The notes beneath the pieces are model-generated. The model was not told the origin of the DNA, made no database searches, and saw only the letters and a list, made by a program, of their open reading frames with translations. Position numbers and translations under genes: made by a program. From Bacteroidales bacterium (GTDB lineage Bacteria; Bacteroidota; Bacteroidia; Bacteroidales; DASVHX01), in the NCBI GenBank assembly GCA_038246075.1, contig JBBRRV010000002.1, positions 6,267 to 70,266 of the forward strand: a stretch of 64,000 nt of DNA, read 5' to 3'. This document shows positions 12,019 to 59,214 of the stretch, piece after piece. The stretch's first letter is position 1; the number at the start of each line of letters is the position of its first letter.

Positions 12019-12042
12019 CTGCACGGCTGCACGGCTGCACGG
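12019..12042. repeat. Tandem octamer (CTGCACGG) x3 between convergent genes
   Basis: Read directly: ctgcacgg ctgcacgg ctgcacgg. The same octamer occurs once in the dnaA terminator loop (18716-18723). Confidence 0.9.
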
Positions 12043-12051
12043 TTACAAGCG

Positions 12052-12483
12052 TTACTCACCAACCATGCTGCCCAGCAGGCTCCTGGCCATATGCGATATT
12101 GTGAGGAATGCGTCGAGTTTGCGGGCCCGGTTGTATTCGTTCAGGGCACCGACATTACGCCCTGTTTTCTGGAGACAACTCGCTTTATAAAGATGGGCAT
12201 CCACATTATCGGGATTCAGTTTAATGGCAACGTCAAAATCACGGATGGCTCCTGCAATATCCCCAAGCAGATATTTATAATAGCCCCGGCGGAAATATGA
12301 TTCATCATAAAGGGGATTCAGGATAAGAGCTTTGGTGCAATAACCGAGGGCGTCCTGGTATTTGTTGCTATTCTCCATAATGGTGGCCTGACGCAGGCAC
12401 GCATTAACATCCTCCTGCTGTGCCCTGGCAAAAAAGGTTAACGAGATAAGCATTATGGTTAATAATAACTGAATTCTGATCAT
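12052..12483 (-). CDS. Secreted tetratricopeptide-repeat protein
   Basis: 143-aa ORF with a signal peptide ending FFARAQQ. TPR-like helices (ALGYCTKALILNPLYDESYFRRGYYKY, AIRDFDVAIKLNPDNVDAHLYKA). Confidence 0.75.
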   Translation of the reverse strand: MIRIQLLLTIMLISLTFFARAQQEDVNACLRQATIMENSNKYQDALGYCTKALILNPLYDESYFRRGYYKYLLGDIAGAIRDFDVAIKLNPDNVDAHLYKASCLQKTGRNVGALNEYNRARKLDAFLTISHMARSLLGSMVGE

Positions 12484-12637
12484 CTGGAAGGAAGTGTAAA
12501 ATGAAGTTACAAAAAAAAATAATTAAGCAGGAGCGTTTCAATATTTTGGACGTTCACCAGGTTGAAAAGTTACTTCCCTGAGCTACATTTGTTGCCATTG
12601 GCTGCGAGGAATTTGCCACTTGTCTGGCAATTTGTCT

Positions 12638-12645
12638 TATCTTTG
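12638..12645 (+). promoter_or_regulatory. -7 box TATCTTTG with an upstream TTTG (12612-12615)
   Basis: 46 nt upstream of the ATG at 12692 (PBP1A ORF start). The TTTG lies 22 nt upstream of the box. Confidence 0.5.
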
Positions 12646-12691
12646 CTGCATTCCTGCTTAGCTATTTCAGCCGGATCATTTCAAGCTCTTA

Positions 12692-15136: not shown

Positions 15137-15383
15137 TTGCTGAAATGAACAAAATTTATCTGAACATGTTTTAAATGAGTAAATTCGCTGGCTTTTTGGA
15201 GGGAGGTTATTCCCCCGGTCAATTAGCCTTTCATACAGCAATTACTCGGTAAGCAGAAATAAAAAAACGGTTTGAAATAAATAGCAAAATAGAAATAAAC
15301 AGTCATTAGACGCGCTGATCAAAAACACTAACGGTGTCCCATTTACAAATAATCTCTATTCACAAACAATCATACAAATTCGC

Positions 15384-15893: not shown

Positions 15894-15911
15894 CTGGTCG
15901 CATACAAAATG

Positions 15912-15950
15912 ATCCGGCATTTGCTTCCTTATCAGCAGCAGGTGCCGGAT
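15912..15950. terminator. Long-loop inverted repeat between convergent slyD and methyltransferase genes
   Basis: atccggca ... tgccggat (8 bp perfect, 12 bp with one mismatch) and a 23-nt loop. Weak terminator candidate. Confidence 0.3.
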
Positions 15951-15992
15951 TATTATATCCCTGCAAACCATAGCTGGCTTGTGGGCTTAAAG

Positions 15993-16709: not shown

Positions 16710-16800
16710 GTGGTTTCTGATTTCAAAATTTCGCTATATCCGGATACTTCTTTACAATTACATTGAAATAAATAGAAATAAATAGTTTACAACATGTTTT

Positions 16801-16850
16801 TATGTATTTAAGGTATATCAATGTATATCAATGTATATCAATGTATTTAT
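16801..16850. repeat. Decamer tandem array, 5 units (ATGTATATCA type)
   Basis: tatgtattta aggtatatca atgtatatca atgtatatca atgtatttat. Same family as the TTCAATGTAT decamers elsewhere. Confidence 0.9.
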
Positions 16851-16877
16851 TGGAATACCTGATCATGCGTGTAATTT

Positions 16878-17819: not shown

Positions 17820-17888
17820 CTGGATAATTTTAATATTATTTTAAGTTGTGCGCGAACGTTTCGGGATTTTCTTTTGCAGGAACAGCCT

Positions 17889-18353
17889 TTAACCGCCATT
17901 TTGAAGTTTATTGGCAATGACATCAGCTGCCTGGTTCAGCAGATCGAATACTGATTCAAAATCGCTTATTTTACCATAATAGGGATCGGGTAAAACATCA
18001 TTTCGTCCGGGACTCAAGGCGTTGAGGATAAAATCAACTTTAAGGCGGTCACTATCATTCCGGGCAACCTGCATGACATCGCTGTAATTTTTGTTGTCCA
18101 TCACATAAATACGATCGAAGCGATCAAAGTCAGCCTGCTGGAATAATCTTGCCCGGTAGCCCAAAATGTCGATGCCGTTTTTACGGGCAACTTTTATGGC
18201 ACGCTCATCAGGTGCGTCACCTGTGTGGAAAGCCTCAAAACCCGCTGAGTCAACTTCAGCTTCAAGGCCAAAGGAATCAATCTTATGCTGCATAATACCC
18301 TCTGCAAGGGGCGATCGGCAGATATTGCCAAGGCAGACCATCAGTATTTTCAT
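17889..18353 (-). CDS. Low-molecular-weight protein-tyrosine phosphatase
   Basis: MKILMVCLGNICRSPLAEG (CX5R(S) P-loop) and a DPYY motif. The track start at 18389 is a TTG inside a heptamer repeat, so the ATG at 18353 is preferred. Confidence 0.9.
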   Translation of the reverse strand: MKILMVCLGNICRSPLAEGIMQHKIDSFGLEAEVDSAGFEAFHTGDAPDERAIKVARKNGIDILGYRARLFQQADFDRFDRIYVMDNKNYSDVMQVARNDSDRLKVDFILNALSPGRNDVLPDPYYGKISDFESVFDLLNQAADVIANKLQNGG

Positions 18354-18373
18354 CTTCTTTCTATATAAATTCC

Positions 18374-18408
18374 AAGCCCCAAGCTCCAAGCCCCAAGCCC
18401 CAAGTTCT
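18374..18408. repeat. Heptamer tandem array, 5 units (AAGCCCC; TTGGGGC on the minus strand)
   Basis: aagcccc aagctcc aagcccc aagcccc aagttct, ending 20 nt upstream of the phosphatase ATG. Confidence 0.9.
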
Positions 18409-18440
18409 AATTTTCAAGGTTAAAGGAGAAAGGTTGTCAG

Positions 18441-18590
18441 TTCAATTTGCTTCCATATACTTCAACCTACTTCTTTTTATGTGCATGTATTTCTGCGTAT
18501 TTCCATTTACTTCCATTTACTTCCATTTACTTCAATTTACTTCAAAATATTTCTATGTATTTCTATGTGTTTCAAAGTGTTTCAAAGTTT
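18441..18590. repeat. Decamer tandem array, 15 units in unbroken 10-bp register (TTCCATTTAC type)
   Basis: ttcaatttgc ttccatatac ttcaacctac ttctttttat gtgcatgtat ttctgcgtat ttccatttac x3 ttcaatttac ttcaaaatat ttctatgtat ttctatgtgt ttcaaagtgt ttcaaagttt. Confidence 0.95.
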
Positions 18591-18650
18591 CAAGTGAGTT
18601 CCTTTTTGCGCCATTGCTAAACTGTGGTTGACTTTCAACAAGGTTTCGTA

Positions 18651-18683
18651 TGGCCTGATGCCTATTGCCTATTGCCTGCCTAT
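18651..18683. repeat. Heptamer array (TGCCTAT; ATAGGCA on the minus strand), about 4 units
   Basis: tggcctga tgcctat tgcctat tgcctgcctat, just downstream of the dnaA terminator. Confidence 0.85.
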
Positions 18684-18696
18684 CGCCGGCAAAGAT

Positions 18697-18727
18697 AAAA
18701 AAAACCGCCGGCAAGCTGCACGGCGGT
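18697..18727 (-). terminator. Rho-independent terminator of dnaA
   Basis: Minus strand ACCGCCG-tgcagcttgc-CGGCGGT followed by TTTTTTTT, 24 nt after the dnaA stop. Confidence 0.7.
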
Positions 18728-18750
18728 ATCATCATCATATTTGTCAACCG

Positions 18751-20208
18751 TTAAATTTTGATTTTTTTCTCGATCTCATCTGCAAATATCCTGAAATTCT
18801 TATCAGTATCGATAAGGTTGTTCACTGTGCGGCAGGCATGCAGTACGGTGGCGTGGTCCTTGTTACCGCAATGCAGGCCGATAGTAGCCAGCGACGATTT
18901 GGTGAGTTTTTTGGAAAAGAACATGGCCAGTTGCCGTGCCTGAACGATATCGCGTTTCCGTGTTTTGGAGTTGAGCTGATCTACCGGGATGTTAAAGTAA
19001 TCACAAATGATCTTTTGAATGAAGTCGATAGAGATCTCGCGGGTAGTGTTTTTCACGAATTTATCGATCATCTGCCTTGCCAGTTCTATCGTAATTGCTT
19101 TCTTGTTGAGTGATGACTGTGCCATGAGCGAAATGAGCGCACCTTCGAGTTCACGCACATTTGTGGCAATGCTGTAGGCAAGGTATTCAATTACATCCTG
19201 AGGCATCTCTATGCCATCCTTGTAAAGCCGTTTATGAAGAATAGCTATCCTTGTCTCGAGATCAGGAACCTGCAGGTCGGCAGCAAGACCCCATTTGAAG
19301 CGGGAAAGCAACCTTGGTTCCATACCTTTAAGTTCAACCGGAGCTTTATCAGATGTGATGATAATCTGCTTCCCTTTCTGATGTAAGTGGTTAAATATAT
19401 GGAAAAAGACATCCTGGGTCTTTTCCTTACCTGCCAGGAATTGAATATCATCCAGGATAAGCACATCTATCATCTGGTAGAAGTGGACAAAATCGTTATG
19501 GTTGTTATTTCTTACCGCATCTATAAACTGCTGCGTAAATTGCTCTGTAGCAACGTAGAGAACAGTTTTTTCCGGAAACATGTTCTTTACCTGGATGCCA
19601 ATGGCGTGCACCAGGTGTGTTTTTCCCAATCCTACGTTAGAATAAAGGAATAATGGGTTGAATGATGTTTTGCCTGGTTTATTGGCAACGGCATATCCTG
19701 CTGAACGTGCGAGGCGGTTGCAATCACCTTCCACAAAATTATCAAACGAATAGGATTCGATAAGTTGGGATTGTACCTGGATTTTTTTTAGTCCAGGGAT
19801 TACGAAGGGGTTTGGGATGTCTTTTGACCCTGAACCATTTATATTTAGTGGCATTGATACTGAAGGATTTGCGATTGCCCTTTTATTACTTGTAGGTACT
19901 TTAATGGTGTATGGATCAGCATTAAAACTGCCATCCATCACAATACTGTATTCGAGCCGGCCTGTAATTCCAAGTTCGTTGCGTACAGTCTTTTTAAGCA
20001 GACTGATGTAATGCTCTTCGAGCCATTCGTAAAAGAACTGGCTGGGCACCTGTATGGTGAGTACATTGTTTTCAAGCTTTACGGGCTTTATCGGGGCGAA
20101 CCACGTTTTGAAGTTCTGGTAATTCAGATTGTCCTTGATGACGAGCAGACAATTGTCCCATACTTCTTCGAAAGCTTCTTTCATTCGTGTATTGGTGTTA
20201 AAGATCAT
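18751..20208 (-). CDS. dnaA: Chromosomal replication initiator DnaA
   Basis: 485-aa ORF. Walker A NVGLGKTHL, Walker B LILDDIQF, C-terminal DNA-binding signature DHATVLHA. The alternative start at M9 (20184) is possible. Confidence 0.95.
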   Translation of the reverse strand: MIFNTNTRMKEAFEEVWDNCLLVIKDNLNYQNFKTWFAPIKPVKLENNVLTIQVPSQFFYEWLEEHYISLLKKTVRNELGITGRLEYSIVMDGSFNADPYTIKVPTSNKRAIANPSVSMPLNINGSGSKDIPNPFVIPGLKKIQVQSQLIESYSFDNFVEGDCNRLARSAGYAVANKPGKTSFNPLFLYSNVGLGKTHLVHAIGIQVKNMFPEKTVLYVATEQFTQQFIDAVRNNNHNDFVHFYQMIDVLILDDIQFLAGKEKTQDVFFHIFNHLHQKGKQIIITSDKAPVELKGMEPRLLSRFKWGLAADLQVPDLETRIAILHKRLYKDGIEMPQDVIEYLAYSIATNVRELEGALISLMAQSSLNKKAITIELARQMIDKFVKNTTREISIDFIQKIICDYFNIPVDQLNSKTRKRDIVQARQLAMFFSKKLTKSSLATIGLHCGNKDHATVLHACRTVNNLIDTDKNFRIFADEIEKKIKI

Positions 20209-23269: not shown

Positions 23270-25474
23270 TCAAAAAAAGATTGCTATTTCCACCCTGCGG
23301 TTCTTTTGCCTGCCTTCCGGCGTTGTGTTGGCTGCTACAGGCCTGGTTTGTCCGTACCATTCGGGTTTAATCCGTTCTGCAGGCATTCCTTTCTTAATAA
23401 GATAATTTTTGACTGCCAGCGTTCGGTTTTTCGATAGTGTCATGTTGGACTCAGCTTTGCCAACATTGTCGGTATGTCCCGAAAGCTGGAGTTTCCAATC
23501 AGGTTTTTTCAGTAAAAGTGCTGCAAGTTTGTCCAGTGAAGCATAGGAAACCTGTTTGATGACCGATTTGCCGGATTCAAATTCGAGGCTTGAAAAGGCT
23601 GTATTGAGCACTTCCTGCTCTTCCTTCTTGATCAGCGGACAGCCATCGTTCTCTGCTACACCGGCAATGGTGGGGCATTTATCATGAATATCCGCAATGC
23701 CATCACCATCTGTATCCTGCCATGGGCAGCCCTTATTTTCAAGCGGCCCGGGATTATTGGGGCAGGCATCTTCAGAATCCTTTATGCCATCACCATCCGT
23801 GTCAACAACAGGGCAGCCCTTGTTTTCCAGGGGGCCGGCAACCTTAGGGCAGAGGTCATCCTTGTCGGGTACACCATCGCTGTCGGTATCAGGGCAACCA
23901 TTGAATATGGCCAAACCTGCCTGCAAAGGACATGCATCCTGGCTGTCAATGATGCTATCACCGTCGGAATCGGGGCATCCCTTGAATGCAGCAAGTCCTT
24001 TTACATCCGGACAAGCATCATCGGCATCCTTTATACCATCGCCATCGGCATCCGGACAGCCCTTAAACTGAGCCAGTCCGGGAATAAGCGGGCATTCATC
24101 TGCTTTGTCAGGTACACCATCCTGATCAGTGTCTTTCTTCGGCCTGCCGAAAGTCAGCACCAATCCTGCATGAAGATGCACATTCTGAGCTGTTTTAAAG
24201 TTGGGGACCACCAAAATGTTATCGGTGGTGGCATATAGCTGCATTGGACCCAGATTCACTGACATCCCCACTCCGATATTGTTGTAACTTCTGTTCATTA
24301 CGTTATATGAAGCCGAGAGGCCAAGTACACGTCCAAGTTGGGTATAATAGGAGAGCGAGAAAGCCGGAATAAGCTTTTTGTCATAGAATTGGCCATGAAA
24401 AAGGATTCCCAGTGTATTTCTTTCGTTAATATTGAAATCGGCCCCTGCATAAAATTGCATAGGCAGGTATGCCGTGTAAGATTGGTTGTAAAGGGAATCG
24501 ATCTTAAACTGATTTTTTAATGAGTCGAGCACGACCTGGAAGGCATCTCCAAATGATTTATTCGTTCCAAAAAAATCGTTGATTTCTACGCCGTTAAAAG
24601 TTGCCACTTCTCCGGGCCTGTTACTTTGAAGGGTAAGAAGTTGTTTTTTCCATTTGATATAACCAAGATCGAGCAGGCTGGCTGAGAATGAGAATTTACT
24701 GTTGAGCTTGTATGTGGCTCCAATATCAATACCCATTCCAAAATTACCACCCTTCAGGATATTTTTTTTGTTCGAATCCATACTGTCGATACCCGCAGTC
24801 CTGATGATGATGTCCGACTTCATCCGGAAACTGAAATCGTCGGGGTCGGTGTAGAGGCTAACGTTTGCCCGTTCGGTGTATGCATTGACATGCCCGTTCA
24901 GCAGTTTTACATGCACTCCTAAGGAAAGGTGGTCGTTAAACTCTTTTGCCAGGCCGAGTGCAAGCTCATCAAAGACCATGGCATCTGCACGTGGGTTGAA
25001 ATTCAACTCCTTACCTAATCCAATATTAGCGTTCCCCTTCCAGGCAAAATTAATAAAGTCCTTCGGATAACTCAGCCTGAAGATACCACGCTCACGGACC
25101 GAAAGTGTGAAGTAGTCGCTTTTGGCGAATTTAAAACCAAAGGAAAGGATATCAAGGTCGATGTTGGTGAACATGTTGTTTCTGTCGCCAAGTTTGGACA
25201 GGAGTTTATCCACATCTATTTTCAGGGAGTCATCCGGCATTTTCGTTATGAGATCGTTATAGCTGAATGCGTTGGAGGTATGAAAATAAATGGAGGAAAG
25301 ACCCGGAATGCCAGCAAATGCGCGGGCCTGTGGCACGAGCGCCGGGTTCTGATACATGCGATAAGGCACAAGCTGCATGTGGTATAGCGTAAAGTCGGTT
25401 TGCGCGACAGCCTGACCAGCAAATAAAAGTGAGGTAATGCCGATGATGAATATTGATCGTAAAGACTTTTTCAT
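23270..25474 (-). CDS. Outer-membrane protein: N-terminal beta-barrel-like region, thrombospondin type-3 Ca-binding repeats, C-terminal OmpA domain
   Basis: 734-aa ORF. Signal peptide ..LLFAGQAVAQ; at least 7 DxDxDGxxDxxDxCP repeats; OmpA-like GHTDNVGKAESNMTLSKNRTLAVKNYL. Confidence 0.85.
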   Translation of the reverse strand: MKKSLRSIFIIGITSLLFAGQAVAQTDFTLYHMQLVPYRMYQNPALVPQARAFAGIPGLSSIYFHTSNAFSYNDLITKMPDDSLKIDVDKLLSKLGDRNNMFTNIDLDILSFGFKFAKSDYFTLSVRERGIFRLSYPKDFINFAWKGNANIGLGKELNFNPRADAMVFDELALGLAKEFNDHLSLGVHVKLLNGHVNAYTERANVSLYTDPDDFSFRMKSDIIIRTAGIDSMDSNKKNILKGGNFGMGIDIGATYKLNSKFSFSASLLDLGYIKWKKQLLTLQSNRPGEVATFNGVEINDFFGTNKSFGDAFQVVLDSLKNQFKIDSLYNQSYTAYLPMQFYAGADFNINERNTLGILFHGQFYDKKLIPAFSLSYYTQLGRVLGLSASYNVMNRSYNNIGVGMSVNLGPMQLYATTDNILVVPNFKTAQNVHLHAGLVLTFGRPKKDTDQDGVPDKADECPLIPGLAQFKGCPDADGDGIKDADDACPDVKGLAAFKGCPDSDGDSIIDSQDACPLQAGLAIFNGCPDTDSDGVPDKDDLCPKVAGPLENKGCPVVDTDGDGIKDSEDACPNNPGPLENKGCPWQDTDGDGIADIHDKCPTIAGVAENDGCPLIKKEEQEVLNTAFSSLEFESGKSVIKQVSYASLDKLAALLLKKPDWKLQLSGHTDNVGKAESNMTLSKNRTLAVKNYLIKKGMPAERIKPEWYGQTRPVAANTTPEGRQKNRRVEIAIFF

Positions 25475-25587
25475 TTGTTATTACTTATTTTTACGGGCCT
25501 TATGGAATACGCTATGATGAAGAATATTATCATATCAATTGTTGTTTATACAATCATGGTTATTTCATACTTTCATCGATGTACGGG

Positions 25588-30272: not shown

Positions 30273-30273
30273 T

Positions 30274-31885: not shown

Positions 31886-31927
31886 TAGGCAATAGGCATT
31901 AGGCAATAGGCAATAGGCAATAGGCAA
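31886..31927. repeat. Heptamer tandem array, 6 units (TAGGCAA)
   Basis: taggcaa taggcat taggcaa x4, starting 28 nt after the mqnD stop. Confidence 0.95.
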
Positions 31928-32052
31928 TTGTCAGCACCTGAAATACATTGAGCCCCCAAAGAATAATTATTCATCACCTGAATTTCATTCGGCCTGATTT
32001 CCTTGGATTTGATTACTTTTGTGACCATTTTTGTTTACTCCAGCTATTATTT

Positions 32053-33954
32053 ATGCGTAAATGCTTATCCCTTCCATTTTTTCTGATCATTCTGCTTTTG
32101 GCTTTTATCGTAAAGCCTTTAAGCGGGCAAAATGCAATGCCATCACCTCCTGTAAGTATAGCATTCCCGGAATTATTGGGGCAGGCTGCAGTTGTAAAAC
32201 TTCTGTCACCGGATGTTGCATCTCTGATGCTGGAGGACAGAAACGTTGAAAGCAACGGCGATCCCTATCGCATGGGGGTTTCATTACCTGTTTATATCAA
32301 TTGTGCTGAAGACGGAAAATGGCAGAATATTCCCGGAGGAAGTCTCTGGATGCTTAAAATCAGCTCGCAGGGAGCAAAAGGCCTGGGACTCTACTTTAAC
32401 AAATTCCAGCTCCCTCAGGGTTGCACAGTTCATATTTTCGATGTGGCAAAAACACAGGTTTTAGGCGCATTCACACACAAATCCAATCCTACCGGAGGAT
32501 TCTATGCTTCAGGAATCATTCCCGGAAGCGAACTTATTATTGAGTGTTTCAGGCCAGATAATGCACCAATGCCGGATATTATTATTGATGAAACGCTTTA
32601 CGTTTACCGCTCATCCGGAATACCACAGGTCAATTCTGTTAAAGATTTTGGCGGTGCGGGAACCTGCGAAGTAAATATAAATTGTGATGAAGGTCAAGCC
32701 TGGCAGGATGCAAAGCATGGTGTTATGCGTATCCTGGTCAAGATCGGCGGAACATCATTTTGGTGCACTGGTTCGCTGATCAATAATACCAGCAACGATT
32801 ATACGCCCTATATCATAACAGCCAATCACTGTGCCGAGCGCAGCGGTGCGTTCGCCACTGCTACCGATCTTGCGAAATGGATTTTCTACTTCAATTTTGA
32901 ATCCGTTAATTGTGCTGATCCCCTTGCTAAACCAATATTATACAGTACCGTGGGCGCAGTCAAAGTGGCCGGTGCAAGCCTTGATAAAGGTTCGGATTTT
33001 TTTCTGGGTACACTCAAACAGAATATACCCGGAGAATACCTCCCTTTCTATAATGGATGGGACCGCAGTGGGGTAGCAAACAAGGGGGGTGTTAGTATAC
33101 ATCATCCACAGGGTGATATTAAAAAGATTTCGACTTACGATACCACAATCATCACTGCGCAGTTTGGCACGGTGCCAAATACGCACTGGAAGGTTTACTG
33201 GCATGCGACAAAAAATGGCGAAGGCGTTACAGAGCCCGGTTCATCAGGAGCACCTCTATTCGACAAGACCGGACACATACTAGGATGTCTTACCGGTGGC
33301 AATTCAAGTTGCACCAACATAAAGGAGCCTGATTACTTCGGGAAACTTGCTTACTCATGGGATTCGAATGGTACTGCCGATACCCTGCAACTCAGGCCAT
33401 GGCTTGATCCGCTCAATACCGGAGCTTCGGTACTTCCCGGCACATACAACAATAACCTGGTTGTAGCCGATTTTAGCACCGATACTACCAGCATTCCCTT
33501 TGGGGGAATCATCAATTTCACCGATCGGTCCCTCGGGCATCCTACTTCCTGGGTCTGGACTTTCAAGGGAGCTGAACCAGCAACCTCCAATCTGGAAAGC
33601 CCGAAAGGGATCATTTATTCCGACGTCGGACAATATGATGTGCAGCTCATTGCCAGTAATGACCACTATTCAGATACCATAACCAGAAAAGAATATGTCC
33701 TGGTTACTCCACCGGAAATTTTCCCTAATCCAAGCCGCGGAATTGTTAAAATCCTTTCTGGAAGGGGCAAGGCCGCCGGAAATCCTGTTCTTGTTTACAA
33801 CCAGATGGGTAAACTCGTATATAAAACGATCTGGCCGGCCGATGCCGGGAATATGATTACGCTGGATCTTTCGCATTTAGCCAGAAGTATTTATTTTGTA
33901 TCTTTTTCTACACCCAGCGGAATTACTACCCGTAAAATATTGCTGCTGCCTTAA
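32053..33954 (+). CDS. Secreted trypsin-fold serine endopeptidase with a PKD domain and a T9SS C-terminal sorting domain
   Basis: The ORF starts at 31948, but the signal peptide MRKCLSLPFFLIILLLAF starts at 32053. His motif ITANHC, Ser motif EPGSSGAPLF, PKD-like FTDRS..WVWTF..G, and C-terminal FPNPSRGIVKIL...KILLLP. Confidence 0.85.
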   Translation: MRKCLSLPFFLIILLLAFIVKPLSGQNAMPSPPVSIAFPELLGQAAVVKLLSPDVASLMLEDRNVESNGDPYRMGVSLPVYINCAEDGKWQNIPGGSLWMLKISSQGAKGLGLYFNKFQLPQGCTVHIFDVAKTQVLGAFTHKSNPTGGFYASGIIPGSELIIECFRPDNAPMPDIIIDETLYVYRSSGIPQVNSVKDFGGAGTCEVNINCDEGQAWQDAKHGVMRILVKIGGTSFWCTGSLINNTSNDYTPYIITANHCAERSGAFATATDLAKWIFYFNFESVNCADPLAKPILYSTVGAVKVAGASLDKGSDFFLGTLKQNIPGEYLPFYNGWDRSGVANKGGVSIHHPQGDIKKISTYDTTIITAQFGTVPNTHWKVYWHATKNGEGVTEPGSSGAPLFDKTGHILGCLTGGNSSCTNIKEPDYFGKLAYSWDSNGTADTLQLRPWLDPLNTGASVLPGTYNNNLVVADFSTDTTSIPFGGIINFTDRSLGHPTSWVWTFKGAEPATSNLESPKGIIYSDVGQYDVQLIASNDHYSDTITRKEYVLVTPPEIFPNPSRGIVKILSGRGKAAGNPVLVYNQMGKLVYKTIWPADAGNMITLDLSHLARSIYFVSFSTPSGITTRKILLLP

Positions 33955-42159: not shown

Positions 42160-42204
42160 TTTGAATGTTTTTGTTTAAACGGATTGAAACAGATAGATTA
42201 ATTG

Positions 42205-42276
42205 GATTGATGAGATTGAAAGGATTGATGAGATTGAAAGGATTGATGAGATTGAAGGGATTGAAAGGATTGATGC
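42205..42276. repeat. Nonamer tandem array, 8 units (GATTGATGA/GATTGAAAG alternating, 18-bp super-unit)
   Basis: gattgatga gattgaaag x3, then gattgaagg gattgaaag gattgatgc. A degenerate copy gattgaaac lies at 42182. Confidence 0.95.
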
Positions 42277-42290
42277 GTTCTGAATTGATT

Positions 42291-42420
42291 TCAAACGTTT
42301 TCAATGTATTTCAATGTATTTCTAAGTATTTCAATGTATTTCATTGTATTTCAACATGCTTCCATGTACTTCGATGTACTTCCATGTACTTCCATGTACT
42401 TCCATGTATTTCCATGTATT
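42291..42420. repeat. Decamer tandem array, 13 units in unbroken register (TCAATGTATT then TCCATGTACT sub-blocks)
   Basis: tcaaacgttt tcaatgtatt x2 tctaagtatt tcaatgtatt tcattgtatt tcaacatgct tccatgtact tcgatgtact tccatgtact x2 tccatgtatt x2. Confidence 0.95.
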
Positions 42421-42434
42421 CCCTTTTGTATAAT

Positions 42435-42908
42435 TTATTCATTATGATACGGTTCGTTTTTTAAAATGGTAAATGCCCGGTATAGCTGTTCTGCAAATAT
42501 AAGTCTTATCAATTGGTGGGTAAAGGTAAGCCGTGAAAGCGAAAGCTGGAAGGATGCGCGTTTTTTCACTTCATCGGCAATGCCAAAAGCACCCCCGACA
42601 AGGAAAATCAATTCCCTGGTTCCTGAGTTCATCCATTTCTGCAACTGGGTGGAAAATTCCACCGAGCGGAGTTCTGTGCCTTTTTCATCGAGCACGGCAA
42701 GTGTGCTGCCAGGTGAAAGTTGCTTCAGGATCAGCAAGGCTTCGCGTTCCTTAACCTGATGTGGCGACAGGTTGGCAGCATCTTTTAGTGCCGGGATCAC
42801 AATTACCTGCAATGTGGTATAATGACGAAGGCGCGATAAATACAGATTTAAACCTTGCTCAATGAAAGCTTCTTCAGTTTTGCCGACAAGGATGATTGTT
42901 ATCTTCAT
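42435..42908 (-). CDS. rlmH: 23S rRNA (pseudouridine1915-N3)-methyltransferase
   Basis: 157-aa SPOUT protein. MKITIILVGKT... and LSLSRLTFTHQL are typical of RlmH. Confidence 0.9.
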   Translation of the reverse strand: MKITIILVGKTEEAFIEQGLNLYLSRLRHYTTLQVIVIPALKDAANLSPHQVKEREALLILKQLSPGSTLAVLDEKGTELRSVEFSTQLQKWMNSGTRELIFLVGGAFGIADEVKKRASFQLSLSRLTFTHQLIRLIFAEQLYRAFTILKNEPYHNE

Positions 42909-44502: not shown

Positions 44503-45486
44503 ATGATGTATAAGGAACAGATTAAGCAGAAAGCTCAGAAAGCACGTGATCAATTAAAACATATAGGGAGAAAGACGTTGGTCTGGAAACCTGTCCGTTC
44601 TTTCATTGTCTTTACCAATCGCCTGATCTTGCCTGGTTTCGACGGATTATCGCTCTGGGATGTATCGGTGTTTTTTGTAAGAGGCATCCAACGCGGATCC
44701 ATCACTTCAAGGGCATCTTCTTTTTCATTCAACTTTTTTCTGGCCGTATTTCCGGCAATTATTTTCTTTTTTACCATTATTCCTTATATCCCGGTGGCTC
44801 ATTTTCAGGATACACTGCTTGAGCTGATGCGCGATTTCATTCCCGAAAAGGCATATAACGCAGTGGAAGGGACCCTGTTCGACATTGTAAAACGTCCCCG
44901 TGGTGGTCTGCTTTCGATAGGTTTTATACTGGCCATGTATTTTTCCACCAACGGGATTAACAGCCTCATCGAGTCGTTCAACCAAACTTACCATACTATA
45001 GAAACCCGTTCAGCTTACAAACAAAGACTGATATCAATACTCCTTGTACTTATCCTGTCGGTATTGGTGATCCTGGCTATTATGCTGATCATTATAGGCC
45101 CGATTGTGCTGGAATTCCTCGTCAGTAAAAATATTTTGCACAGCAGATTTCTCGTGCAACTAATCAATTTCGGCAAATGGGCTGTTATTGTAGCCCTTTT
45201 CTTTTTTGTTTACTCTTTTCTTTATTATCTGGCCCCTGCCAAACGCAGGCAATTCCGGTTTATTTCAGCCGGATCCACACTTGCCACCGGCCTCACGATC
45301 CTGACTTCTATTGGATTTAATTACTATGTGAACAATTTTTTGCGCTATAACACGCTCTATGGATCAATTGGTACATTAATGATTGTAATGCTCTGGATCT
45401 ATTTTAATGCCATTATTGTGCTGGTGGGTTTTGAACTGAATGCGAGCATTTTCAATGCCAAGCAGGAGTGGAGAGCCACAAGATGA
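44503..45486 (+). CDS. YihY/BrkB-family membrane protein
   Basis: The track start at 44485 is GTG; an ATG-ATG pair lies at 44503. Six hydrophobic helices and YGSIGTLMIVMLWIYF, typical of the family. Confidence 0.75.
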   Translation: MMYKEQIKQKAQKARDQLKHIGRKTLVWKPVRSFIVFTNRLILPGFDGLSLWDVSVFFVRGIQRGSITSRASSFSFNFFLAVFPAIIFFFTIIPYIPVAHFQDTLLELMRDFIPEKAYNAVEGTLFDIVKRPRGGLLSIGFILAMYFSTNGINSLIESFNQTYHTIETRSAYKQRLISILLVLILSVLVILAIMLIIIGPIVLEFLVSKNILHSRFLVQLINFGKWAVIVALFFFVYSFLYYLAPAKRRQFRFISAGSTLATGLTILTSIGFNYYVNNFLRYNTLYGSIGTLMIVMLWIYFNAIIVLVGFELNASIFNAKQEWRATR

Positions 45487-45615
45487 AATTGGAAAATTGA
45501 AAATTTGAAATACATAGAAATACATAGTAGTACATTGAAGTAAATTGAAGTTGAGTGATGGGATTGATGAACTTTGAAATACATAGAAATACATAGAATT
45601 ACCTTGAAGTATTTG
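45484..45615. repeat. Decamer-type array in inverted orientation (GAAATACATA / GAAGTACATT), about 10 units, with an embedded GATTGATGA nonamer
   Basis: Starts at the yihY stop codon. tacatagaaa tacatagtag tacattgaag taaattgaag ... ggattgatga ... acatagaaat acatagaatt. These units are reverse complements of the 18441 and 42291 decamers. Confidence 0.9.
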
Positions 45616-45636
45616 GTCCTGGAATCAGAATTTACC

Positions 45637-45769
45637 TTGGATCTTTGATCTTGGAATTTGGGACTTGGATCTTGGAACTTGGGACTTGGGACTTGGAATT
45701 TGGGACTTGGATTTTGGAACTTGGGACTTGGATCTTGGAACTTGGGACTTGGAATTTGGAACCTGGAAT
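45637..45769. repeat. Heptamer tandem array, 19 units (TTGG[GA][AT][CT])
   Basis: ttggatc tttgatc ttggaat ttgggac ttggatc ttggaac ttgggac ttgggac ttggaat ttgggac ttggatt ttggaac ttgggac ttggatc ttggaac ttgggac ttggaat ttggaac ctggaat. No indels. Confidence 0.95.
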
Positions 45770-52258: not shown

Positions 52259-52266
52259 TATCTTTG
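52259..52266 (+). promoter_or_regulatory. -7 box TATCTTTG
   Basis: 24 nt upstream of the gpsA-like ATG at 52291. Divergent from the NulO promoter. Confidence 0.5.
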
Positions 52267-52290
52267 CGCCTTAAATCTGAAAGGCAAAAA

Positions 52291-53894: not shown

Positions 53895-53919
53895 GGTTGG
53901 GTTATTATCAGTTTAATAA

Positions 53920-54036
53920 AGTGCCTAGAGTTGGGAGTGCCTAGAGTGCCTGGAGTTGGGAGTGCCTAAAGTTCCTAGAGTTCCTAGAGTTCCTAGAGTG
54001 CCTAGAGTTGGGAGTGCCTAGAGTGCCTGGAGTTGG
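53920..54036. repeat. Mixed 9-mer/7-mer array (AGTGCCTAG / AGTTCCTAG / AGTTGGG) with a duplicated ~41-bp higher-order block
   Basis: [agtgcctag agttggg agtgcctag agtgcctgg agttggg] agtgcctaa agttcctag x3 [agtgcctag agttggg agtgcctag agtgcctgg agttgg]. Confidence 0.95.
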
Positions 54037-54092
54037 TTTCCTGCTATCGTCATTTTTATGATATTGTGCGCGTTTTTCAATATCGAATCTGT

Positions 54093-54133
54093 TGCCTATT
54101 GCCTAATGCCTAATACCTCAATGGAGTGCCTAT
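54093..54133. repeat. Heptamer array (TGCCTAT/TGCCTAA) overlapping the wecB stop codon
   Basis: tgcctat tgcctaa tgcctaa tacctca atggag tgcctat. Confidence 0.85.
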
Positions 54134-55233: not shown

Positions 55234-56543
55234 TTTGTAGCGTGAGAAATGGAAATCTGGTCGAGCAACCGGGCAATATCGCCCGTAAGCGCTTTACGTG
55301 AGTATTGATCTATTGAAGTTTCATTTTGAGGCTGTTCACTGTTTGTATATTGGCTAAATAATTCACTTAGAGCAGTATGCAGTCCTGGTTCATCACCAAA
55401 ATCCACCACGGGACCAGCGTTTGTTTCTTTAATAATACGTGCACTGTCGCCTGCCAGAGGGCCGATACAGAGGACCGGCCTGCGTGTGGCCAGGTATTCA
55501 AATACCTTTCCGGGAATGATGCCTAATGAATTTGACGTATTGTTGATCAGCAACAGCAAAACAGCCGAGCCAGCCGAGAGTTCAAGCGCTTTATCATGAG
55601 GCACATAGTCGATCTTTTCAGCACACTGCGAAAGTCCATGGCGTTCGAGGCTTTCAAACACACTGAAATCTGTTTTGCCGATAAACCTTATTTTGAGCAA
55701 ATGACGGAAGGCTTCATTGGTTTTGGCCATTTCGCCCAACACACGCCAAAGGAATTCAGGATTGCGGTCCTTATTGAGTGAACCGATATGAGTGAGCAGG
55801 AATGCCGGTGGCTTGCTGTGATTGGTGGCAGGGAAATCTGCAGGGTCGAAACCATTGGTGATCACATCCGTATGCTTAGACCCCAGCGCATCAAAATCTC
55901 TGGCCCAGCTCCAGCTTACGGTTACAATGCGGTCGGCAGCCCTGAGCACATTATTTTCGAGCCTGTGATGGCGCCGATTGGCCATGGGCGTCAACATCAG
56001 TTTATCATAGAAATCGATCTTCGTCCATGGATCTCTGAAATCGGCTAGCCAGGGCAAATTAAGCCGTTGTTTGATGCCAAGTGCGATAAGATGTGTGGTG
56101 TGCGGAGGACCAGTAGAGACGACGGCATCAACAGGATGCTCCTTCAAATAAGTTGTCAGAAATCCAATGGAAGGTTTGATCCAGAACTTGCGTGCATCGG
56201 GAATAAACAGGTTACCCCTCAGCCAGACAGCGACTTTATCGGCAAAGCCAGGCTTTTTGTTTTCGCTCAGGAAGCCGGCACTGATTTTGTCATCTTTTTT
56301 AAGGCCTACGAACTTGCGGTAAAAGGTGTAAGGCTCCCAGATGGTCTGGTGAATGACTTCCAGTCCTTCAGGAACATCTTTAAACAATGAGTGATCCAGG
56401 GCAGGTGCTTCGGGATTTGCTGCAGTGTAAACAACTGGTTCCCATCCCCAATTCCGGAGGTATTTAACAAATTTAAGCCAGCGTTGAACGCCTGCACCTC
56501 CGCTGGGTGGCCAATAGTATGTGATGATGAGCACCCGCTTCAT
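55230..56543 (-). CDS. GT-B glycosyltransferase (GT4-like), conserved partner of YfhO
   Basis: 437-aa ORF. MKRVLIITYYWPPSGGAGVQRWLKF. ATGA overlap with wecB. Confidence 0.75.
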   Translation of the reverse strand: MKRVLIITYYWPPSGGAGVQRWLKFVKYLRNWGWEPVVYTAANPEAPALDHSLFKDVPEGLEVIHQTIWEPYTFYRKFVGLKKDDKISAGFLSENKKPGFADKVAVWLRGNLFIPDARKFWIKPSIGFLTTYLKEHPVDAVVSTGPPHTTHLIALGIKQRLNLPWLADFRDPWTKIDFYDKLMLTPMANRRHHRLENNVLRAADRIVTVSWSWARDFDALGSKHTDVITNGFDPADFPATNHSKPPAFLLTHIGSLNKDRNPEFLWRVLGEMAKTNEAFRHLLKIRFIGKTDFSVFESLERHGLSQCAEKIDYVPHDKALELSAGSAVLLLLINNTSNSLGIIPGKVFEYLATRRPVLCIGPLAGDSARIIKETNAGPVVDFGDEPGLHTALSELFSQYTNSEQPQNETSIDQYSRKALTGDIARLLDQISISHATK

Positions 56544-56597
56544 ACGTCGTTCATTTTATGTTTATGCCTTTATCGAATAAGCCAATTTTTGAGATGA

Positions 56598-59021
56598 CTA
56601 TTCCTTTTTCATCCAGCCAAAAACACCTCCTCCGATCAGCAGGATGATCAGCAGTAATGAACTCGCAAGCGATATTTTTTCACCGGTGCGGAAAACAGCA
56701 GGTTCAAATTTGTATTCGATGGTATGTTTTCCTGCAGGGACAATCATTGCCCGTAATACATAATTGGCGCGGAAATAAGGTGCTGATTTTCCGTCGATGT
56801 AGGCATTCCAGCCGTTGTTATAATAAATCTCCGAGAATACTGCAAGTTGTTCTTTCCCTGAATTCGACACGTAGGTAAGGTGGTTTGGCTTGTATTCCTT
56901 CAGGGTGATAGATGCTGTGGAATCTTTGGCAATGCTGTGACCTTTCAGATCAGCTTCAAATCTTTTGTCAACAATAGCCGTTTCTGCCGGATTAAAAGCA
57001 GTGAGGGAATTGATCTCTTCATCAGCATTTTTAACCAGGTTCACGTCGTTTACAAACCATGCATTGCCCAAAGCCTGCATATTGAGCTGGACAGTTGGTT
57101 GTTTATCTGCTCCGGGGACAATAAAATATTTAGTATTGAGCATGTTATAAACATTCATGTTGTTTCTGCTCAAATGACGTTCAATAAGTTCCTGGTACCT
57201 TCTGAGCTTGGCGCCGTGATAGCCACCTATTGACTTATGGAAATAGGAATTGCTTGCATCATTGAACGGATTTACGGTGAGATTCATGACACGGTAGTCG
57301 GGGTCAAGGTCTTTCATGATGAGCTCATCAGCCTGTGTAGGCTGGAAAGGCACATCCACCAGGCTCTTGCGTACAAAATCATCATTGTTCACATAGCGCT
57401 TATTTACAGCCCAAAGATCGACAAGTATTAAAACAGCCAGAATGGCAAAGACAGGATATTTCTTAAGCTTATCCGTAAGATAAGCCCACAGGGTAGCTGC
57501 TGCAAGCAGGATAAAGAAGAATGAACGCCATGCATCGGAAGTGAGCATAGATGCCCTGTCGAGGCGGATAGCCGCCATCATCCAGGCGGGGAAGTAATCC
57601 TTATACTGAACGTCCTGGGAACTTGAGAAATTGAACATGCTTCCGGCGAAAAGTGCAAATATGATGGTGATGCCGGCAGTAATTCCTGCAGCATATGCAA
57701 GCTGACGTATCATTTTCTTCTTGTCAACCCCATCCGAAAATACTTTTCGCAGGGCGAGAATGGCCAGCAGTGGTATGGTGAATTCGGCGATAACCAGGGT
57801 CATCGAAACAGAACGGAACTTATTGTAACCGGGAACATATTTGAAGAAGAAATCGGTAAGTGGCATGAAATTATGTCCCCATGCGAGCATTAATGAAAGC
57901 ACAGTGGCGCCCAGAAGCCACCATCTGTATCGGTTTTCGACTACCAGTAGTCCGAGCATGAAGAGGAAGATAAGGATAGCTCCAACATACACAGGCCCCG
58001 AGACTATCGGTTGTTCGCCCCAGTAAAGCGGGAGGTTGTTGAGTACCTGTGTGACACTTGCTTCAGGAACATTATTTTGCATCAGGGCTTTATAGGTTGC
58101 GGATTTAACACCTAAACTTCCAGCCGAAGCACCGCCTCTGGCATTGGGAATGAGTAGCGTCATCGATTCGCCTATGCCATAACTCCATCCGGTTGCATAA
58201 TCCTTATCGAGACCACTCGTGCGGTTTTCTTTTTCACTGGTGAGTTCCGTTTTCCCCCTGATGGTTTCTTTCCCATATTGGTATGTAGCCCAGATATTTG
58301 TGATATTAGTGCCTATGGCCAGGAATCCGGCTGCTAATACGATTGCTGAAGCTATGAAAAATGACCTGAGACTTTTCTCCTTCACATGAAAGACGAATTC
58401 TGAAATTCCAAAGGCTAAGATGATCAGGCCAAGATAATAAGAAATCTGAAGATGATTTGCCAGGAGTTCAAGCGAAAGGAAAAGAGCGGTGAGCAGGCCT
58501 CCGAGCAGGTATTTGCCTCGGTAGGTGAGGATAATACCTGCCAGTACCGGCGCCATATATGCAATGGCATGGGCCTTGCTGTTGTGTCCGGCTTCGAAGA
58601 TGATAAAGAAATAGGATGAGAATGCAAATGCAATGGAACCTGCTATACATAGCCAGGGATCAATGCCCAGTACCAGCAGTAAAATGAAGAAACCAAGGAA
58701 GTAAAGAAATGTCAGGCCTGCAGGGTGGGGCAGTCCGAGTTTAAGTATGTTGTCAATATATTTTACAAGATTAGCTTTGTACACAACCGAAATCTGATAA
58801 GCCGGCATCCCACTGAACATGGAATTGGTCCAGAGAGGCTCTTCACCGGTTTTTGCACGAAAATCAACAATTTCCTTTGACATCCCTTTCCACTGTGAAA
58901 TATCATGTTGTTTAATCTTTTTTCCCTCCAGCAATGGTGTGAAATAAACCATTATGATAATGACGAAAATAACGATAGCAGCCAGGTAAGGCGCCAATGT
59001 GCGGAAATTGATTTTTTTCAT
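56598..59021 (-). CDS. YfhO-family polytopic membrane protein (GT-C-like)
   Basis: 807-aa ORF, more than 12 TM helices. N-terminus ..YFTPLLEGKKIKQHDISQWKGMSKE..PLWTNSMFSGMPAYQIS is typical of Bacteroidota YfhO proteins. Confidence 0.8.
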   Translation of the reverse strand: MKKINFRTLAPYLAAIVIFVIIIMVYFTPLLEGKKIKQHDISQWKGMSKEIVDFRAKTGEEPLWTNSMFSGMPAYQISVVYKANLVKYIDNILKLGLPHPAGLTFLYFLGFFILLLVLGIDPWLCIAGSIAFAFSSYFFIIFEAGHNSKAHAIAYMAPVLAGIILTYRGKYLLGGLLTALFLSLELLANHLQISYYLGLIILAFGISEFVFHVKEKSLRSFFIASAIVLAAGFLAIGTNITNIWATYQYGKETIRGKTELTSEKENRTSGLDKDYATGWSYGIGESMTLLIPNARGGASAGSLGVKSATYKALMQNNVPEASVTQVLNNLPLYWGEQPIVSGPVYVGAILIFLFMLGLLVVENRYRWWLLGATVLSLMLAWGHNFMPLTDFFFKYVPGYNKFRSVSMTLVIAEFTIPLLAILALRKVFSDGVDKKKMIRQLAYAAGITAGITIIFALFAGSMFNFSSSQDVQYKDYFPAWMMAAIRLDRASMLTSDAWRSFFFILLAAATLWAYLTDKLKKYPVFAILAVLILVDLWAVNKRYVNNDDFVRKSLVDVPFQPTQADELIMKDLDPDYRVMNLTVNPFNDASNSYFHKSIGGYHGAKLRRYQELIERHLSRNNMNVYNMLNTKYFIVPGADKQPTVQLNMQALGNAWFVNDVNLVKNADEEINSLTAFNPAETAIVDKRFEADLKGHSIAKDSTASITLKEYKPNHLTYVSNSGKEQLAVFSEIYYNNGWNAYIDGKSAPYFRANYVLRAMIVPAGKHTIEYKFEPAVFRTGEKISLASSLLLIILLIGGGVFGWMKKE

Positions 59022-59080
59022 CTAGAATTAATAATTTGCTGTTAATTTAAATTATCAGATGGAATTTACGTGTTGCGCTA

Positions 59081-59150
59081 AGTTGGTGATTTGTGTCTGG
59101 TAATTGGTGATTTTTAATGGGTGTCTGTTAACTGGTGACTTGGGACTGGA
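59081..59150. repeat. Irregular repeat (TTGGTGA ... GTGTCTG) x2-3 ending in ACTTGGGACTGG
   Basis: agttggtgatttgtgtctggta attggtgatttttaatgggtgtctgtta actggtgacttgggactgg. Confidence 0.7.
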
Positions 59151-59165
59151 TCAATTAACAATGAG

Positions 59166-59214
59166 CCTTTCTCCTTTAACCTTTCTCCTTTATCCTTTAA
59201 CCTTTAAGCTTTGG
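59166..59214. repeat. Heptamer tandem array, 7 units (CCTTTNN)
   Basis: cctttct cctttaa cctttct cctttat cctttaa cctttaa gctttgg. Overlaps the stop codon of the DUF4834-like gene. Confidence 0.9.

Follow-up and report, generated by a model that had tools for sequence, protein, structure and literature searches.

Intergenic tandem-repeat arrays of an environmental Bacteroidales genome are probably slippage-generated minisatellites with a strand rule at gene ends

Heterocystous cyanobacteria carry short tandemly repeated repetitive (STRR) sequences, STRR1-3, with the units CCCCAAT, TTGGTCA and CAACAGT. The BOX elements of Streptococcus pneumoniae and the REP/BIME elements of enterobacteria are modular, dispersed intergenic sequences with a variable number of internal modules, often found in 3' untranslated or intercistronic regions. 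Stable palindromes underlie both of them. Long simple sequence repeats (LSSR) with units of 5-11 nt were described by Mrazek et al. 2007 and, as summarised in PMC4679880, are longer than expected by chance, with heptamers being prominent. According to the same summary passages they are concentrated in non-coding DNA and phylogenetically patchy, polymerase slippage was proposed as their origin, and the ten genomes richest in 5-11-nt repeats include no member of the Bacteroidota. Here we analyse the short tandem arrays, foremost those of a decamer reading GAAATAcATd, that occupy spacers in a window of 64,000 nt from the Bacteroidales metagenome-assembled genome (MAG) GCA_038246075.1 (contig JBBRRV010000002.1, positions 6,267-70,266 of the forward strand).

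Heptamers with a bias towards gene ends have been described before. Direct repeats of TAACTGA were reported by MacGregor 2015 in Beggiatoaceae, Cyanobacteria and five Bacteroidetes; in the parts of PMC4679880 used here, long arrays are given for Gramella and Aequorivita, whose array spacers contain other heptamer repeats as well. Rehm et al. 2015 (PMC4692102) studied intergenic G-rich heptamers of unknown function, GGGAATC in Xanthomonas and GGGGA(T/C)T in Nostoc, the latter of the STRR type. These lie on the coding strand 0-50 bp after stop codons, with some overlapping the stop itself; before start codons they occupy the non-coding strand, and they show extensive length and sequence variation between close relatives (PMC4692102). 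In Porphyromonas gingivalis, the BrickBuilt MITE (a transposable element of the miniature inverted-repeat type) consists of a leader, an internal 23-nt minisatellite and a tail and has terminal inverted repeats of the IS5 type (PMC4596501).

We consider it probable that the arrays in the window are slippage-generated, cassette-copied intergenic minisatellites of the LSSR/STRR class that are filtered or driven by transcription, and not conserved regulators. Comparison of the sequences shows that arrays are born where a short seed was present, gain or lose whole units and are copied as cassettes, sometimes together with a head or leader. It also shows their replacement or loss within a few percent divergence, their confinement to non-coding DNA and a strand rule at gene ends. 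The host belongs to the Bacteroidota, as seen from the type IX secretion system (T9SS) sorting domains in the window and from close homologues that carry Bacteroidales names.

The arrays were detected with Tandem Repeats Finder (TRF). TRF reported an array at every site that the original prediction had named, so that all eight of its array-filled spacers were confirmed, with periods of 7, 8, 9 and 10 nt, super-periods of 14, 18, 21 and 25 nt, and scores of 48-185 (units of 7, 8, 9 and 10 nt). The window arrays are not CRISPR arrays, as their units are contiguous and have no unique spacers between them. Genes were called as the greedy longest open reading frames (ORFs) after repeat masking, which is a crude method. 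By these calls, 88% of the window is coding, and array bases account for 1018 of the 7366 non-coding positions (13.8%) as against 142 of the 56634 coding positions (0.25%), in agreement with the earlier claim that the arrays lie outside credible coding sequences. Arrays were present in 9 of 39 spacers, of which 7 are co-directional, 1 is convergent and 1, with a weak array, is divergent. A spurious 99-aa ORF was seen at 42165-42464 (plus strand), since none of the six frames of (GTACATGGAA)n contains a stop, and the mechanical ORF starts at 18389 (ORF 17889-18389, minus strand) and 31948 (31948-33954, plus strand) are probably over-extended into spacers when compared to the gene calls of relatives. 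Coding repeats with 87-nt spacing at 23661-24133 in the DUF5723/OmpA gene correspond to thrombospondin type 3 repeats and have no relation to the arrays between genes.

Read support came from a Logan contig of run SRR19962014, which starts in the nonamer array at 42204 and ends in the TAGGCAA array at 31886, with an identical RdgB sequence. An independent contig with both ends inside arrays shows that the arrays are in the raw reads and that short-read assembly breaks there. The arrays are therefore not an artefact of this assembly, a possibility that had been raised with the original prediction; exact copy numbers remain as assembled. Breaks or N-scaffolding of short-read assemblies were also seen to fall exactly at arrays in other loci (e.g. 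locus L092 11760-11850), and many close homologues of the array-flanked pyridoxal-phosphate (PLP) enzyme were found on contigs of only 1-2 kb.

The strand rule was analysed in loci of other genomes. For the decamer, three consecutive TTCNATKTAY units were searched with one genome per species, which gave at least 88 loci, and every array was turned to read GAAAT; all counts from the surveys refer to the matches or loci listed. Bacteroidota MAGs held 76 of the 88 loci, among them Bacteroidales, Prolixibacteraceae/Mariniphaga, Lewinellaceae, Phaeodactylibacter and Psychroflexus, and several MAGs held many loci each, up to at least 15 in one. When both flanking genes had the same direction, 37 arrays of Bacteroidota loci in other genomes were in sense and 9 in antisense orientation (p = 4e-5). 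In 32 of 37 cases the decamers were closer to the upstream stop (median 34 nt) than to the downstream start (median 140 nt). Among the arrays no more than 40 nt from a stop codon, 32 from 17 genomes had GAAAT on the coding strand and none had it on the other (p = 5e-10), and beside starts there was no preference (6 versus 7). Degenerate decamer units often reached or included the stop codon itself. The rule held in 6 of 6 convergent spacers, and in the five stop-adjacent cases that were read among the matches outside the Bacteroidota, all arrays were in sense. The sense polarity of the decamers, for which a chance probability of roughly 1 in 32 had been given from the few sites in the window, was thus borne out far more strongly. 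A scan of viral contigs gave 3 matches only and was uninformative.

The orientation could follow replication or transcription. The cumulative GC skew climbs monotonically over 1-64000 and does not switch at dnaA (18751-20208, minus strand), so apparently the replication origin is not next to dnaA in this window. Since the sign of the skew is constant, yet the decamers flip with the gene strand, the decamers track transcription and not replication.

For the TAGGCA heptamers, a metagenome scan with the pattern (TAGGCAW)3 gave at least 120 loci with 35-66% G+C. Within 20 nt of a stop codon, 34 arrays were in sense and 1 was in antisense, in line with the sense orientation near stops that had been noted for ATAGGCA. 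This bias arises in part because the TAG of the unit often is the stop codon, and with co-directional flanks alone the count was 27 versus 16, which is not significant. The other unit families were tested for composition with arrays from the genome, metagenome and relative loci and from the window, after near-duplicates had been dropped; these arrays were not chosen by a search pattern. After stops, G exceeded C on the coding strand in 56 versus 20 cases (p = 4e-5) and the coding strand was purine-rich in 52 versus 25, whereas before starts C exceeded G in 45 versus 21 (p = 0.004). The array-free 40-nt flanks were neutral, with 267 versus 262 after stops and 287 versus 335 before starts, and we conclude that the strand rule is a property of the arrays themselves, not of the sequence around them. 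Inherited local composition was rejected as its cause on these grounds.

The arrays of the window, listed here together with the terminator of dnaA, can be compared with this rule.

12019..12042, no strand assigned: CTGCACGG x3, in a 39-nt spacer between convergent stops; position conserved, in degenerate form, in relatives
16756..16785, plus strand: about 2-3 decamers of the GAAATAAATA type, antisense with respect to the minus-strand genes on either side; forms a foldback with 16802-16849, of which it is the inverted arm
16802..16849, minus strand: decamer array of the TGATATACAT type, about 4.6 units, gene-sense, 31 nt past the stop of the PLP-enzyme gene
18366..18418, minus strand: heptamers CTTGGGG/CTTGGAG, about 5 units, sense, just 5' of the start of the low-molecular-weight phosphatase gene; CCAAGCC on the plus strand
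18399..18435, minus strand: CCTTTNN-type block, 78% complementary to 59178-59214, the two having opposite orientation relative to their respective genes
18441..18593, minus strand: decamer array of the GAAATACATA and GAAGTAAATG types, about 15 units, gene-sense
18656..18687, minus strand: TAGGCAA-type heptamers, about 3 units, sense, just past the dnaA terminator; TGCCTAT on the plus strand
18696..18728, minus strand: intrinsic terminator of dnaA, hairpin and T-run, upstream of every array in its spacer
31886..31928, plus strand: TAGGCAA x6, sense, 27 nt past the stop of a MqnA-like gene
42195..42275, minus strand: nonamer/18-mer array, sense TCAATCCTT/TCAATCTCA, 44 nt 5' of the rdgB start; 42204-42273 in the TRF output
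42283..42420, minus strand: decamer array, GAAGTACATG and GAAATACATT, about 13 units, sense, 14 nt past the rlmH stop; 42299-42420 with 12 units in the TRF output
45484..45611, plus strand: decamer array of the GAAATACATA type, sense, beginning at the TGA stop of a BrkB-like gene and interrupted by a GGGATTGATGA insert
45636..45768, plus strand: heptamers CTTGGGA/CTTGGAT/CTTGGAA x19, sense, with a 21-nt super-period
53920..54036, minus strand: array of a 25-nt super-unit, sense CTAGGCACT/CCCAACT, C>G, 25 nt 5' of the start of a hexapeptide-transferase gene
54089..54123, minus strand: TAGGCAW heptamers, about 4 units, sense, beginning near the stop of the UDP-GlcNAc 2-epimerase gene; TGCCTAA on the plus strand
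59089..59140, minus strand: loose 14-mer array, ATTGGTGACTGTTA on the plus strand, C>G on the sense strand
59166..59212, minus strand: heptamers, sense TAAAGGN (CCTTTNN x6 on the plus strand), 88% purine, overlapping the stop codon of a DUF4834 gene

Purine-rich TAGGCAA, GAAATACATN and TAAAGGN units follow stops in the window, and the C-rich TCAATCCTT, CCCAACT/CTAGGCACT and the 14-mer precede starts, as the rule predicts. The exceptions are the G-rich CTTGGGG and CTTGGGA arrays at 18366 and 45636, which lie before starts on the coding strand. The proposed order from the stop through ATAGGCA or decamers and other units to the next start carries over to other loci only as a rule of composition. 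The polarity suggested for two families stands for the decamers and TAGGCA, and no uniform orientation was seen for units of the TTGGG and CCTTT types. At the 16801 site, the sense decamers on the minus strand were described correctly, but their inverted partner, GAAATAAATA x2 on the plus strand, had been overlooked.

A stop-codon cassette, based on units with stop codons and lengths not divisible by 3, was rejected as the general cause. Lewinellaceae and Phaeodactylibacter have GGAAATACAT units that contain no stop codon on either strand and still show the same orientation, and by our reading of the unit GGGAATC (PMC4692102) has no stop codon.

The turnover of the arrays was followed in relatives whose contigs were found by exact-protein look-ups and are syntenic with the window. 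The look-ups with DnaA and with a 613-aa glycosyltransferase gave no match, and RdgB gave matches. The genes of the close relatives are about 92-93% identical to the window at the nucleotide level; a more distant relative has about 79%, with 89% protein identity for its PLP enzyme. Among six comparable spacers of the close relatives, homologous arrays were kept in one, with different copy numbers, and the other five had none or other arrays. The rlmH-rdgB spacer holds 275 nt of arrays in the window as compared to 258 nt of unrelated, non-repetitive DNA in the relatives. The spacer between dnaA and the phosphatase gene is 361 nt long in the window and 255 nt in a close relative. The more distant relative has 88 nt there, which consist of the terminator hairpin and 30 nt only; in a relative with 85% protein identity, the spacer has 81 nt judging from the gene coordinates alone. 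The dnaA terminator at 18696-18728 is conserved in the relatives even where the spacer is 88 nt, and the adjoining heptamers at 18656..18687 are reduced to a one-unit remnant (ataggcaggca) in relatives. Between the PLP enzyme and the methylase, the window has 168 nt and the relatives have 85 and 11 nt, without the decamers of 16802..16849. In one close relative, no array with a score of at least 40 was found over the 16.5 kb orthologous to 11.2-27.4 kb of the window, which indicates that the presence of an array at a given spacer is short-lived.

Two other spacers show replacement and birth. Between the MqnA and protease genes the window has (TAGGCAA)6, and the relatives instead carry a head, ggacctggaatcaaaatttaccctgga, followed by ACTTGGG units. 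This is the head-plus-array cassette of the BrkB spacer, which in the relatives is thus present at two loci. In the divergent ddl / PASTA spacer, the window has only the seed gtttgacaaacgac, and an array of GTTTCAGC and TCAAACGNN units, about 140 nt long, is found in the relatives, with an N-gap in this array in one of the relative assemblies. Since the array of the relatives sits exactly at the seed point of the window, it was born in place. In the spacer between BrkB and the glycosyltransferase gene, the window has about 10 decamers and the relatives have 4-6, the heptamers numbering 19 in the window as against about 6 in the relatives, and samples of one relative differ from each other by single units. 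The original prediction had named slippage-prone spacers as one possible role and proposed to look for length polymorphism between strains; the differences in copy number between samples are what this predicts.

The families are shared between distant spacers, as the original prediction had held: the GAAATAcATd decamer is present in four spacers of the window, TAGGCA arrays in three and CCTTT blocks in two. The TAGGCA arrays at 18.6, 31.9 and 54.1 kb match each other by 82-91%, and the CCTTT blocks 18399-18435 and 59178-59214 by 78%. Over 48 nt, the decamer blocks 18529-18576 and 45504-45551 show 90% complementarity with the unit variants in the same order, and both run in sense relative to their genes. 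Separate expansions would not yield such an agreement, and we conclude that both are copies of one cassette. The array at 12019 differs in kind: CTGCACGG x3 was found as an array in no other spacer, and it is not counted as a dispersed cassette.

Some cassettes have additional, non-tandem parts.

18594..18632, minus strand: leader GTCAACCACAGTTTAGCAATGGCGCAAAAAGGAACTCAC, directly 5' of the decamer array
45616..45636, plus strand: head GTCCTGGAATCAGAATTTACC of the TTGGGAC cassette
9791..9829, plus strand: diverged second copy of the leader, AGACAACCTCCATGACTTATTGCACAAACAGGTACTAAC, 42 nt past a stop codon and followed by a hairpin terminator in place of decamers

The leader motif of about 40 nt was also found before the decamers of three Bacteroidales MAGs, JBBRCH, JBBQSY and JBBRYZ, in which it belongs to a composite of leader, array and tail with purine-rich heptamers at its flanks. 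The motif reads AGACAACCACCATTTANCAATGGCACAAACGGGAACTAAC; in several Bacteroidales MAGs it sits between purine-rich heptamers and decamer arrays, and it has two copies in the window. It might form a CCATT/AATGG hairpin or encode a tiny ORF (MAQTGTN...); some third-position changes were seen, but pair changes of the compensatory kind were not. Two direct copies of a hairpin module of about 36 nt, GTGTCTGCACACCCGAAGGGTGTCTGACAC, enclose a leader-decamer-tail composite (L029 7330-7720, L037); the module may be REP-like or may represent a target that was duplicated. In MAG JBBRCH01, the Rfam DUF805 RNA motif was found downstream of a decamer composite (L002 6589-6655; 55 bits, above gathering), which is probably incidental. 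Close relatives contain a non-tandem element X of about 150 nt (GCCATCTCGTCAGAATTCTGACGAGACCAACCGAAGATG...) at two spacers where the window has decamer arrays, and it lies right after TGAAATA(A) each time (L215 9300-9440, L216 4050-4190, L091-L094, e.g. L091 9765-9910). A dispersed intergenic element of 101 nt has two copies in the window with 82% identity, 3821-3921 and 25469-25569, which run up to the ATG of two unrelated genes, GH57 and the DUF5723/OmpA protein.

We prefer an origin of the strand rule in transcription over a dedicated reader protein. When the ribosome leaves at the stop codon, the purine- or G-rich untranslated RNA would pair stably with the template and form an R-loop. This would expose the repeat strand and promote slippage and expansion in that orientation. 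In addition or alternatively, arrays of the opposite orientation might be removed, because C-rich untranslated RNA would recruit Rho and G-rich RNA before starts would hamper initiation. The arrays would then be tolerated hypervariable filler, which may change spacing and transcript properties. The R-loop mechanism fits the onset of the rule at the stop, its independence of the direction of the downstream gene (6 of 6 convergent spacers), its occurrence in several phyla and the fast turnover. The rule also holds for an A-rich decamer without G-quadruplex potential, which suggests that the cause is a general one, tied to transcription or translation and not to G-quadruplexes.

Five points weigh against this explanation. 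The surveyed loci are a biased sample, picked because they bear arrays, and their genes come from crude ORF calls. Both the R-loop-driven growth and the selection by Rho or translation are inferred. The Rho filter does not explain the C-rich, G-poor arrays before starts (42195-42275) or the 6 of 6 convergent cases. The arrays of the BrkB spacer persist over about 7% divergence, so some arrays are not ephemeral. Finally, the core of the decamer looks constrained and the decamer is present in lineages as distant as Bacteroidales, Prolixibacteraceae, Lewinellaceae and Phaeodactylibacter, which could point to a sequence-specific reader.

The last point leads to the reading that the GAAATAcATd array is a functional, strand-specific 3'-end element across the Bacteroidota, read by a GAAAT-recognising protein or by the transcription machinery, with polar termination or insulation through R-loops or Rho. 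We regard this as rather unlikely. If it were true, the arrays would be a non-hairpin gene-end signal that is re-created by slippage in a phylum in which, by a crude scan, hairpin terminators seem sparse. The strand rule is also found in unrelated units and in other phyla (PMC4692102), which favours a general cause over a lineage-specific reader. The dedicated conserved roles proposed with the original prediction, as insulator, terminator, promoter element or protein-binding array, are not supported: in 5 of 6 comparable spacers the relatives at about 92-93% identity have no arrays or other ones, and the arrays have no significant RNA structure.

Decamer arrays could also be binding platforms at the 3' ends of genes, where a conserved DNA- or RNA-binding protein of the Bacteroidota would read the GAAAT core at each helical turn and could thereby label the ends of transcripts, make mRNA more stable or give order to the chromosome. 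The period of exactly 10 bp, the strict orientation beside stops and the presence of one unit across distant lineages (76 of the 88 matches listed) would suit such a protein. Within the decamer arrays the GAAAT core was the least variable part and the unit positions 7, 8 and 10 were the most variable, with G-A-A-(A/G)-T-A being conserved; this test is partly circular for loci found by the pattern, and the window and relatives provide only 24 units. The arrays are, however, missing from the orthologous spacers of close relatives, and no candidate protein was identified. We think this unlikely.

Equally improbable, in our view, are polar transcription insulators, in which RNA from read-in or antisense transcription would be C-rich, G-poor and unstructured and so load Rho and be terminated; RNA that leaves a gene is rich in G and purines, and sense read-out would pass. 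The symmetric composition rule, with G>C after stops and C>G before starts, speaks for it. So does the sense strand of 42195-42275, which contains no G: as RNA of the minus strand, the 86-nt stretch 42195-42280, with a few G in its non-array part 42276-42280, has a minimum free energy of 0. By E. coli criteria (at least 70-80 nt, unstructured, C-rich and G-poor), a composition like that of Rho utilisation (rut) sites was found on the sense strands of 42195-42280 and 53915-54040, and not in the stop-adjacent arrays in sense orientation. Antisense decamer RNA has one UC/CC dinucleotide per 10 nt and little G. Canonical hairpin terminators were present in 7 of 95 array-bearing spacers and in 22 of 143 others by a crude scan of the surveyed loci (p = 0.07), and this depletion is not significant and too weak to claim that arrays replace terminators. 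None of the window arrays qualifies as an intrinsic terminator; only the dnaA hairpin at 18696-18728 does, which had already been singled out as the only one in the array spacers. This normal terminator precedes the arrays of its spacer, the arrays are not conserved at orthologous sites, and the site preferences of Rho in Bacteroidota are assumed from E. coli.

As RNA, the arrays folded no better than shuffled sequence on both strands, and a structured RNA was rejected as an explanation. Searches with Rfam 15 gave no match at the gathering score in the window, only chance-level matches in 18300-18800 (E up to 10) and none on the composites of nine related loci, so that no family was obtained for the arrays, the leader or the composites; no tRNA or tmRNA gene was found in the window. 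A sigma-70 promoter scan is uninformative for Bacteroidota. TAnnTTTG boxes were found in 0 of 7 array-bearing and in 5 of 17 array-free co-directional spacers, in keeping with their earlier reported absence from array spacers, although the contrast is not significant.

All arrays might instead be internal satellites of non-autonomous, MITE-like transposons of the BrickBuilt type, with their distribution resulting from transposition and target choice and not from slippage, which we find quite unlikely. BrickBuilt itself is a precedent (PMC4596501), and the leader-array-tail composites of JBBRCH, JBBQSY and JBBRYZ resemble such elements. At four loci of two MAGs (JANXXY01, CAXXMN01), decamer arrays lie between terminal inverted repeats of roughly 19-25 nt (AACAATAGTTCGGTAATTTTT type) and look like MITE-like or foldback elements that carry the satellite. 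By eye, arrays bounded in this way were also seen at loci L030, L063 and L070. The inverted repeats of such carriers measure 15-25 nt in all, and an inverted second decamer arm is often present. Several arrays in the surveyed loci are followed by an inverted set of units, a foldback of sense and antisense arms that the window has at 16756-16849. The AACAATAGTTCGGTAATTTTT-type inverted repeat, the composite tail and element X were all searched in the window and not found, and no inverted ends are evident around its cassettes. One array was clearly born from a local seed, copy numbers shift by single units and degenerate units often reach right to the stop codon, all of which argues against transposition as the source of all arrays.

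A role of the arrays as contingency loci, whose length changes switch downstream genes by phase variation, several of these being surface-polysaccharide genes, is very unlikely. Copy numbers do differ between samples and several flanking genes encode a glycosyltransferase or epimerase. But the switch proposed earlier is not supported: the arrays lie outside ORFs and a search for promoter boxes in their surroundings gave none; the housekeeping genes dnaA, rlmH and rdgB are flanked as well, and the units are long and imperfect in arrays far longer than known switches. Assembly artefacts, with collapsed or expanded repeats, have a next to negligible probability, since independent assemblies of other runs end in these very arrays and agree with them in sequence, three samples of a relative yielded assembled homologous arrays and hundreds of public contigs contain arrays of these types, although short-read assemblies break at arrays, one relative has an N-gap and exact copy numbers are uncertain.

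Taken together, the slippage-generated minisatellites favoured here extend the LSSR/STRR phenomenon and a little-known strand rule at gene ends to environmental Bacteroidota. With the count of 32 to 0 among the matches listed, birth in place and cassette copies, the decamers offer a clean system for growth in one orientation after stop codons. For practical purposes, such arrays break short-read assemblies, create spurious ORFs and over-extend gene starts.

The class of the arrays and their polarity are already known from LSSR and STRR, from PMC4692102 and from the passages of PMC4679880 used here. The statement that there is no described counterpart in the Bacteroidota was too strong, in view of the Bacteroidetes heptamers in these passages of PMC4679880, the leader-array-tail MITE of Porphyromonas (PMC4596501) and the heptamer polarity in Xanthomonas and Nostoc (PMC4692102). 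In the literature, we found no description of the Bacteroidota decamer family, of its orientation after stops or of its leader and MITE-like carriers, and the LSSR summary passages of PMC4679880 contain neither the decamer family nor the stop-codon polarity. Like the TAACTGA repeats, as far as the same source describes them, the window arrays are intergenic, biased in their orientation to genes and missing from orthologous spacers of close relatives. TAACTGA differs in its unit and in lying mostly just 5' of start codons in 'forward' orientation, and TRF reported no TAACTGA array in the window. With BrickBuilt, the nearest analogue published for the Bacteroidota, the arrays share a host in the Bacteroidota, a strictly intergenic position, modularity and a variable number of units, and BrickBuilt also has partial copies without leader or tail. 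In contrast, the window cassettes have no detectable inverted ends or tail and share only the leader with the composites of other MAGs, and no sequence similarity to the BrickBuilt ends quoted in PMC4596501 was found.

Unlike BOX and REP/BIME, the arrays are essentially unstructured and have much shorter units. They are not STRR proper, as the host is a member of the Bacteroidota and the units differ, with CCCCAAG and TTGGTGA being one base off STRR units. As with LSSR in the summary of PMC4679880, they are longer than expected by chance, have units of 5-11 nt, are concentrated in non-coding DNA and have a patchy phylogeny. In arrangement they resemble the heptamers of Xanthomonas and Nostoc: dispersed arrays with units that are not codon multiples, mostly intergenic, near ORF ends, variable and subject to a strand rule. 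Different are the Bacteroidales host, the dominant polar unit, which is an A-rich decamer without G-quadruplex potential, the concatenation of several unit families in one spacer and the arrays at 18366 and 45636, which break the rule. The window arrays are thus built of head-to-tail units of 5-11 nt, concentrated in non-coding DNA, recurrent, variable between relatives and oriented by a strand rule at ORF ends, as in the LSSR/STRR type, and the analogy to STRR drawn in the original prediction was apt.

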